3,126 nt of DNA, from the NCBI RefSeq assembly GCF_003334385.1, contig NZ_QOWN01000095.1; one strand, written 5' to 3'. Source of the stretch: Escherichia coli. Its GTDB lineage: Bacteria > Pseudomonadota > Gammaproteobacteria > Enterobacterales > Enterobacteriaceae. Shown here piece by piece: positions 1,868-1,914 of the stretch. Position 1 is the first letter of the stretch; each line of letters opens with the position of its first letter. The translations under genes were made by a program, and so were the position numbers. The notes below the pieces were generated by a model that was not told the origin of the DNA, searched no databases, and was given only the letters and a program-made list of their open reading frames with translations.

Positions 1868-1875
1868 TCACCTTT

Positions 1876-1879
1876 CTCC
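1876..1879 (-). promoter_or_regulatory. Ribosome binding site (GGAG) for the tape measure gene
   Basis: GGAG on the minus strand, 8 nt upstream of the ATG at 1867. An extended purine-rich GGAGAAAGGTGA precedes the start. Confidence 0.5.
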
Positions 1880-1885
1880 GGGCGT

Positions 1886-1906
1886 AAAAAAACCGCCTCA
1901 GCGGTT
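1886..1906 (-). terminator. Weak intrinsic-terminator-like hairpin with U-tract in the T-to-tape-measure intergenic spacer
   Basis: Minus-strand RNA reads AACCGC-UGAG-GCGGUU followed by UUUUU. Stem arms are plus 1891..1896 and 1901..1906, loop 1897..1900, U-run from plus 1890..1886. Lies between the T stop (1915..1917) and the tape measure start (1867). The stem is only 6 bp, so at best a partial terminator or mRNA-stability element. Confidence 0.3.
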
Positions 1907-1914
1907 CTCATCAT

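Follow-up and report, generated by a model that had tools for sequence, protein, structure and literature searches.

What is the role of a hairpin followed by a run of U residues that lies between the chaperone and tape measure genes of a phage tail operon in Escherichia coli? The question arises in a 3,126-nt stretch of E. coli DNA, referred to here at its full length as the window. The initial annotation had described a 47-nt spacer carrying a 6-bp stem (AACCGC/GCGGUU), a 4-nt loop and seven U residues, all of which match the minus-strand reading, and had placed the hairpin directly upstream of the tape measure ribosome binding site, in agreement with a GGAG motif just past the U-run. It had also regarded a terminator-like element as unexpected in a late operon. 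This premise fails because it rests on phage lambda, in which T and H overlap by 8 nt; the element is not unexpected in the lineage to which the window belongs, since late operons of the HK97 type carry many annotated internal putative terminators, one of them at exactly this position.

Tail module and layout of the T/H junction

Read as open reading frames, the minus strand of the window is part of a siphovirus tail operon, in which the following features surround the junction between T and the tape measure gene (H).

Ends at 2612, minus strand: major tail protein, C-terminal two thirds, with an Ig-like domain
2594..2220, minus strand: tail assembly chaperone G
1915..2196, minus strand: ORF of the T frame, the -1 frameshift extension of G
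1917..1915, minus strand: T stop codon TGA, 5 nt upstream of the extended stem
1914..1868, minus strand: T/tape measure spacer, 47 nt, ATGATGAGAACCGCTGAGGCGGTTTTTTTACGCCCGGAGAAAGGTGA
1909..1888, minus strand: extended 9-bp helix GAGAACCGC/GCGGUUUUU, as predicted by RNAfold
1906..1901, minus strand: hairpin 5' arm AACCGC
1900..1897, minus strand: tetraloop UGAG (UUCG or UGUG in close relatives)
1896..1891, minus strand: hairpin 3' arm GCGGUU
1892..1886, minus strand: U7 run, its first two U paired in the 6-bp stem and five lying beyond it
1879..1876, minus strand: tape measure Shine-Dalgarno GGAG, 6 nt past the U-run, with the ATG 8 nt further on
1867..1865, minus strand: tape measure ATG (MATLRELIIKISANSQSFQSEI...)

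Of the tape measure gene the window covers the first 622 codons, counted from the ATG at 1867, and the T ORF has 100% identity to the ORF annotated as ‘tail protein’ in phage JLK-2012. The same arrangement of genes is found, at identities of up to 99.6%, in the annotation of E. coli prophages and of Stx-converting phages; of 5426 complete E. coli genomes, 1247 match the window at least partly and 95 do so over nearly its full length. The tail module is HK97-like, not lambda-like. A programmed -1 frameshift site for G/GT is apparent as the slippery heptamer A_AAA_AAG (2229..2223, minus strand), which we take to resemble the dnaX type rather than the G_GGA_AAG of lambda; the G stop codon TAG (2222..2220) directly abuts this heptamer and the T frame runs on in -1 to 1915. 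The C-terminal part of the major tail protein (2612-2880, minus strand) looks like an Ig-like decoration domain (…GGTPPYKYAWKKDGQPVDGQT…YTCVVTD…), and its homologue in JLK-2012 is annotated as ‘immunoglobulin domain-containing protein’.

Anatomy and folding of the hairpin

The 6-bp core consists of four G-C and two A-U pairs closed by the 4-nt loop and folds at -7.1 kcal/mol, while the 9-bp form, gained in RNAfold through A-U and G-U pairs between an upstream A-rich stretch and the U-run, reaches -10.4 kcal/mol. The initial annotation had proposed a folding energy calculation as a check on the element, and neither these values nor that of the whole 47-nt spacer (-14.6 kcal/mol, z = -2.42, equalled by 4 of 200 shuffles) are near zero. 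When a 141-nt stretch around it is folded, the MFE and centroid structures both retain the hairpin, and overall the region shows no unusual degree of structure (z = +0.39). Its anatomy is that of an intrinsic terminator, with a G+C-rich stem and short loop that fall at the weak end for such elements (stems of ~5-14 bp) and a U-run 3' of the stem on the transcribed strand. The short stem had been called weak from the outset, and rightly so: at -10.4 kcal/mol the window hairpin is among the weakest of nine family variants folded (range -8.5 to -14.5 kcal/mol), only those of the related loci L082 and L084 being weaker, and a d'Aubenton-Carafa-type score, which is indicative only, came to about -7 to +5.

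A terminator-motif scan covering both strands of the 3126 nt, based on a heuristic of our own that trims the stem to its last G-C pair, returned this hairpin as its sole match. A consensus terminator scan of the window reported three other weak sites and did not report the hairpin at 1886-1909. We infer that this miss is a false negative of the maximal-stem rule, because maximal extension of the stem by A-U and G-U pairs would use up the U-run, and it is worth knowing about for other terminators with A-tracts. Activity in both directions was rejected because the opposite strand has UUCUC after the hairpin instead of a U-run. Of the partial terminator or attenuator that had been suggested at first, the terminator is the best supported among the functions then listed, whereas an attenuator with alternative helices is unsupported, as the 141-nt fold contains no competing pairing of 1901..1909.

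Conservation and covariation among related junctions

Relatives were gathered by three scans of viral contigs with the tape measure N-termini of the window, HK542 and Serratia phage OS31, together with GenBank phages, and the 237 loci retained are those in which the homologous start M-A-T/S-L-R-E-L-I-I-K... could be located. In 223 of the 237 loci our scan detected a hairpin with a T-run whose end lies 17-26 nt ahead of the homologous H start, and the 14 misses include one G·U variant and one locus cut off inside the hairpin. These 223 hairpins comprise 23 distinct GC cores and many different loops, often UUCG, and T-run length in the relatives is 6-9. A stricter scan placed a hairpin at 80 of 92 distinct junctions; other sense-strand terminator-like motifs that it found in these loci lie nearly all at a few recurrent positions, including those before and after the major tail gene, which are intergenic gaps according to the HK97 and HK542 records.

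Covariation of the stem in related phages had been put forward in the initial annotation as a further check, and it is clearly present. In a MAFFT alignment of 50 distinct junctions, which was not fitted to the structure, 88% of the cells in a 7-pair helix are paired (74.7% shuffled), 39 cells are changed on both sides (8.7 shuffled) and the covariation score is 0.384 (0.144 shuffled), each value being reached by none of 500 shuffles; as the loci are in part redundant and share ancestry, the shuffles credit them with more independence than they have. Pairing falls to 34-55% when the 3' partner is shifted by 1-3 columns. Structure is thus conserved over sequence in the manner of an intrinsic terminator. 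Single-step variants are G·U or U·G wobbles (L051, L097, L141 and the CCUCGC/GCGGGG type), which would be A·C mismatches on the other strand, and therefore the selected structure is the sense-strand RNA. The closest alternative allele, AACCUGC/GCAGGUU, which is also that of prophage Sp6 of E. coli O157:H7 Sakai, differs from the window stem (AACC-GC/GC-GGUU) by a compensatory one-pair insertion. Among alleles of the 47-nt spacer, variation touches only 1 of 17 sites in the stem and U-tail but 21 of the 30 remaining sites (Fisher p = 1.7e-5, a value that, like the shuffle statistics, is uncorrected for relatedness); the sole variable stem site yields a G·U pair and the U-run is invariant. The motif CCGGAGAA at the Shine-Dalgarno is likewise kept in E. 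coli relatives. An identical stem, with a different loop and flanks, occurs in phage vB_EcoS-689R5 (L084), the T-H query region of which has only about 70% nucleotide identity to the window. These comparative sequence data are the strongest evidence that the hairpin is more than a chance feature.

Exceptions to the hairpin rule are found at L233 (1449-1492) and at the L179, L221 and L089 junctions. One group of relatives has a stem followed by no U-run (CCCGC/GCCA/GCGGG then AUUUACAG), a few relatives with empty junctions have a T/H gap of 22-24 nt and no hairpin, and none was found at the lambda-type T/H junctions of Sakai Sp14 and Sp15 or in the HK022 module.

The fixed position of the hairpin could be read in terms of translation, the structure serving to keep the tape measure ribosome binding site single-stranded or to provide a standby site, so that initiation is independent of T. 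The distance from hairpin to ATG is indeed tight and the Shine-Dalgarno follows directly after the U-run; moreover, the T frame is reached only by a -1 frameshift and therefore H cannot depend on translational coupling. However, the conserved U-run would be unneeded for such a role, the hairpin-less relatives with 22-24-nt gaps have the same kind of ribosome binding site, and the Shine-Dalgarno region is weakly paired in the MFE fold, all of which make a translational function quite improbable.

Moron cargo and the empty slot

A moron, in the definition reportedly given by Juhala and colleagues in 2000, is a promoter, a gene and a terminator inserted between two phage genes. Morons are described as carrying their own promoter and terminator, and the founding example, gene 15 of HK97, encodes the prophage-expressed superinfection exclusion protein gp15 (PMC3594210). 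About one in three relatives carries a low-GC envelope-type gene in the interval that separates T from the hairpin. In all 59 distinct long-spacer variants (283-730 nt) there is a single same-strand ORF between the T stop and the hairpin, always upstream of the latter and with a GC content of 0.31-0.46. This cargo is assigned to at least nine PHROG families, hardly any of which has a known function, and includes HK97 gp15/YebO-like homologues, several lipoproteins, a zinc-ribbon membrane protein and secreted proteins (example loci L001, L027, L069, L070, L082, L085, L138, L182, L201, L210 and L217). The slot genes are candidates for prophage-expressed exclusion or envelope functions, making the T/H junction a predictable place for prophage-expressed envelope proteins, among them candidate superinfection exclusion factors.

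The slot of the window itself is empty. Its 47-nt spacer holds no ORF, no sense-strand promoter-like site was found for a moron in the window, and a terminator at the downstream edge is present. Because this terminator is the sole moron component found, the window holds the terminator of the slot and not a moron. The window hairpin corresponds to those found at the end of filled slots in relatives. On a tree built from the tape measure N-terminus, relatives with cargo do not group apart from those without it but are mixed with them. Five matched pairs were compared, and in three of them (L034/L027, L084/L182 and L175/L210) the filled and the empty member share the same hairpin; there the two sequences become homologous again at its 5' edge or no more than about 20 nt away. 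At L203 (about 1062-1500) the zinc-ribbon membrane protein, otherwise 111 aa long, is truncated to 57 aa, and the hairpin behind its gene is the same as in empty genomes (AACCGC/UUCG/GCGGUU); this apparently decaying cargo gene may represent an intermediate in moron loss. In the HK542 clade, the hairpin sequence changes together with the cargo. We take the hairpin for the terminator of the slot, one that persists where cargo is absent; the evidence as to whether it belongs to the backbone or to the cargo is mixed. Such persistence of a terminator in the absence of a moron gene refines the textbook picture of a promoter-gene-terminator unit.

The same observations bear on the reading that the hairpin is an orphan relic, left behind by deletion of a moron gene and functionless in this prophage. 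Hairpins shared by filled and empty slots agree with it, as do the truncated gene of L203 and the joint change of hairpin and cargo in the HK542 clade, which is the behavior expected of a gene-terminator unit. A relic is nevertheless unlikely given that the stem and U-run are far more conserved than the remaining spacer, that the changes seen in the stem are compensatory or wobble, and that the window and vB_EcoS-689R5 share their stem despite the divergence of the sequence around it.

Small RNAs in prophage late regions

Hfq-binding small RNAs (sRNAs) are encoded in the late regions of EHEC and EPEC prophages (PMC4104026; PMC8550237), and a hairpin with a U-tail could act as an Hfq module forming the 3' end of an sRNA released from the T coding region. 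Positions 1953..1886 do match the Rfam family isrK weakly (27.1 bits, E = 0.0038), but this is far under the gathering score of 50, and the weak matches of the relatives go to assorted terminator-ended families (rsmX, Trp_leader, SpF51 and isrK). There is also no sense-strand promoter-like site upstream in the window and no orphan Hfq-CRAC peak at the T/H junction (1,572,210-1,572,261) of Sakai Sp6, which carries the window-type module; the Sp6 peaks in the Sakai orphan list are at 1,557,089 and 1,577,126. We regard an sRNA 3' end as very improbable.

Identity with IsrK (RF01394) itself was rejected after ten relatives had been checked: their junctions either score 18-22 bits to isrK or match other terminator-ended families, and the isrK model also matches other hairpins, indicative of a generic terminator resemblance. 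Published prophage sRNAs were likewise rejected as candidates for the junction. PasA, PasC and PasD map near Q and the lysis genes, PasB maps antisense in the I-J gap of EPEC prophage PP6 (L091 1762-1844, strain E2348/69), and EcOnc22, EcOnc23 and EcOnc24 map to the same I-J position in Sakai (L243 about 12715-12775, prophage Sp15). As PasB of EPEC and EcOnc22/23/24 of EHEC are both antisense in the I-J gap, they are probably one conserved antisense sRNA locus of lambdoid tail operons under two names. Sakai Sp6 carries two inserted genes between the minor tail genes L and K (L245 31554-33209), one for a regulator, in reverse orientation, and one for an antirepressor; the orphan Hfq-CRAC peak EcOnc54 (1,577,126-1,577,187, minus strand) falls in the gap separating the two.

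A putative terminator bounding the moron slot

We consider it reasonably probable that the element is a Rho-independent terminator that bounds the T/H moron slot, is orphaned in the window, and stops unmodified RNA polymerase while polymerase modified by Q reads through. The observed basis comprises the anatomy of the hairpin, its positional conservation, covariation in the sense RNA, association with morons and selective conservation in moron-less genomes. The terminator is favored because an invariant U-run beside a sense-specific hairpin is required for termination and is unneeded for the rival functions. Polymerase lacking Q modification, whether started at a moron or stray promoter or arriving by read-through in the lysogen, would pause on the U-run while the hairpin forms, and the transcript would be released at about 1886-1889, so that neither the tape measure gene nor the distal tail genes would be expressed from the prophage. 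Polymerase coming from the late promoter in its Q-modified state would pass the hairpin during lytic growth. Termination, its efficiency and Q read-through are inferred here, the Q-related mechanism being modeled on lambda-type late regulation and on tR' of Stx phages (PMC7547250).

Three points weigh against a terminator. The window variant is weak, with a core of -7.1 kcal/mol, and the window has neither a moron nor an upstream sense-strand promoter-like site whose transcription would need stopping. In addition, the hairpin is not essential for tail assembly, because a few relatives, lambda, HK022 and Sakai Sp14 and Sp15 have none.

Retention of the hairpin with covariation and selective conservation in moron-less genomes might alternatively reflect a role in gene dosage during the lytic phase. 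The hairpin would then terminate a fraction of Q-modified transcripts or stabilize 3' ends after mRNA processing, with the outcome that the abundant tube and chaperone proteins (V, G and GT) are expressed above the low-copy tape measure and tip genes. The hairpins that HK97-type phages have after the major head gene and flanking the major tail gene would fit such a series of expression steps. However, a pure stabilizer needs no invariant U-run, lambda reaches the same protein ratios with overlapping T and H and no hairpin, and polymerase modified by lambda Q is known to read efficiently through intrinsic terminators. A dosage or stability role is on balance rather unlikely, and in our ranking it stands second to the terminator, ahead of the relic, the translational context and the Hfq sRNA 3' end, in that order.

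A doubtful but possible broader proposal is that the hairpin is more than the remnant of a moron and is a selected resident feature of HK97-type tail operons with two potential roles. It may serve as a safe landing pad, in that any promoter-plus-gene cassette arriving on its upstream side would from the outset be shielded from the tape measure gene, and the presence of at least nine unrelated cargo families at one junction would be explained. It may also form a partial step in transcription or stability between the high-copy V and G and the low-copy H and tip genes, even under Q antitermination.

With the terminator as the preferred reading, the T/H junction holds a putative terminator conserved by structure across phages of E. 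coli, Salmonella, Klebsiella and Serratia. The tail module concerned is widespread among E. coli prophages, many Stx-converting phages and Sakai Sp6 included, and its annotation would gain a regulatory feature that had been lacking. No new mechanism is revealed and the importance is modest.

Comparison with known systems

The likeness to IsrK of the Gifsy-1 prophage (RF01394) consists of a prophage-borne CCGC...GCGG terminal hairpin with a U-run; it is confined to generic terminator features and is not specifically reproduced in the relatives. A closer functional parallel may be sought in tR' downstream of the late promoter PR', which yields 6S RNA/StxS and stops unmodified polymerase in the lysogen, being read through after Q (PMC7547250). 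Both are, or are predicted to be, intrinsic terminators inside a late transcription unit. However, tR' is a promoter-adjacent regulatory switch with mapped 3' ends, whereas the window element is predicted from sequence and lies about 15-20 kb further downstream among structural genes.

The V-G-T-H region of lambda has the same gene order and G/GT -1 frameshift as the window module, and the late operon is presumed to be antiterminated by Q as in lambda, Q genes being annotated in HK97 and Sakai Sp6. Lambda is devoid of a comparable element because its T (10115..10549) and H (10542..) genes overlap, leaving no spacer, hairpin or moron slot.

The closest counterpart is found in HK97, where a putative terminator is annotated past the gene 15 moron (NC_002167 8398..8422; annotation of Juhala et al., 2000). 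It has the same position, strand and architecture as the window element, lying downstream of a homologous G/GT chaperone pair and 12-21 nt before the homologous tape measure start (MATLRELIIKISANSQSFQSEI...). The two differ in stem sequence, the HK97 hairpin being ACCCGCU/AUCA/AGCGGGU followed by U8, and the window stem is shorter and weaker (-10.4 versus -13.0 kcal/mol). They also differ in what precedes them, namely a 289-nt gap with a promoter and the gene for a 62-aa membrane protein (gp15) in HK97 and an ORF-less gap of 47 nt in the window. The HK97 record contains seven further putative same-strand terminators inside the late operon, located near the end of the portal gene, after the major head gene, flanking the major tail gene, before I and before J. 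Hairpins flanking the major tail gene are annotated as terminators in both HK97 and HK542, and similar conserved terminator-like hairpins were observed at L002 (~389), at the locus start of L034 and L084, and at L086 (~234 and 740), as well as in the lineage of the window itself, outside the window, where CCCG-CCGCGUG-CGGG-U6 lies about 1490 nt upstream of the tape measure start. Among the records listed, a terminator is annotated at the T/H position in HK97, HK106, HK544, HK633, mEpX1, mEp234 and HK446. The window hairpin is a real and conserved element of this already known kind, unannotated in its own lineage and at a position that is annotated in records of the HK97 group.
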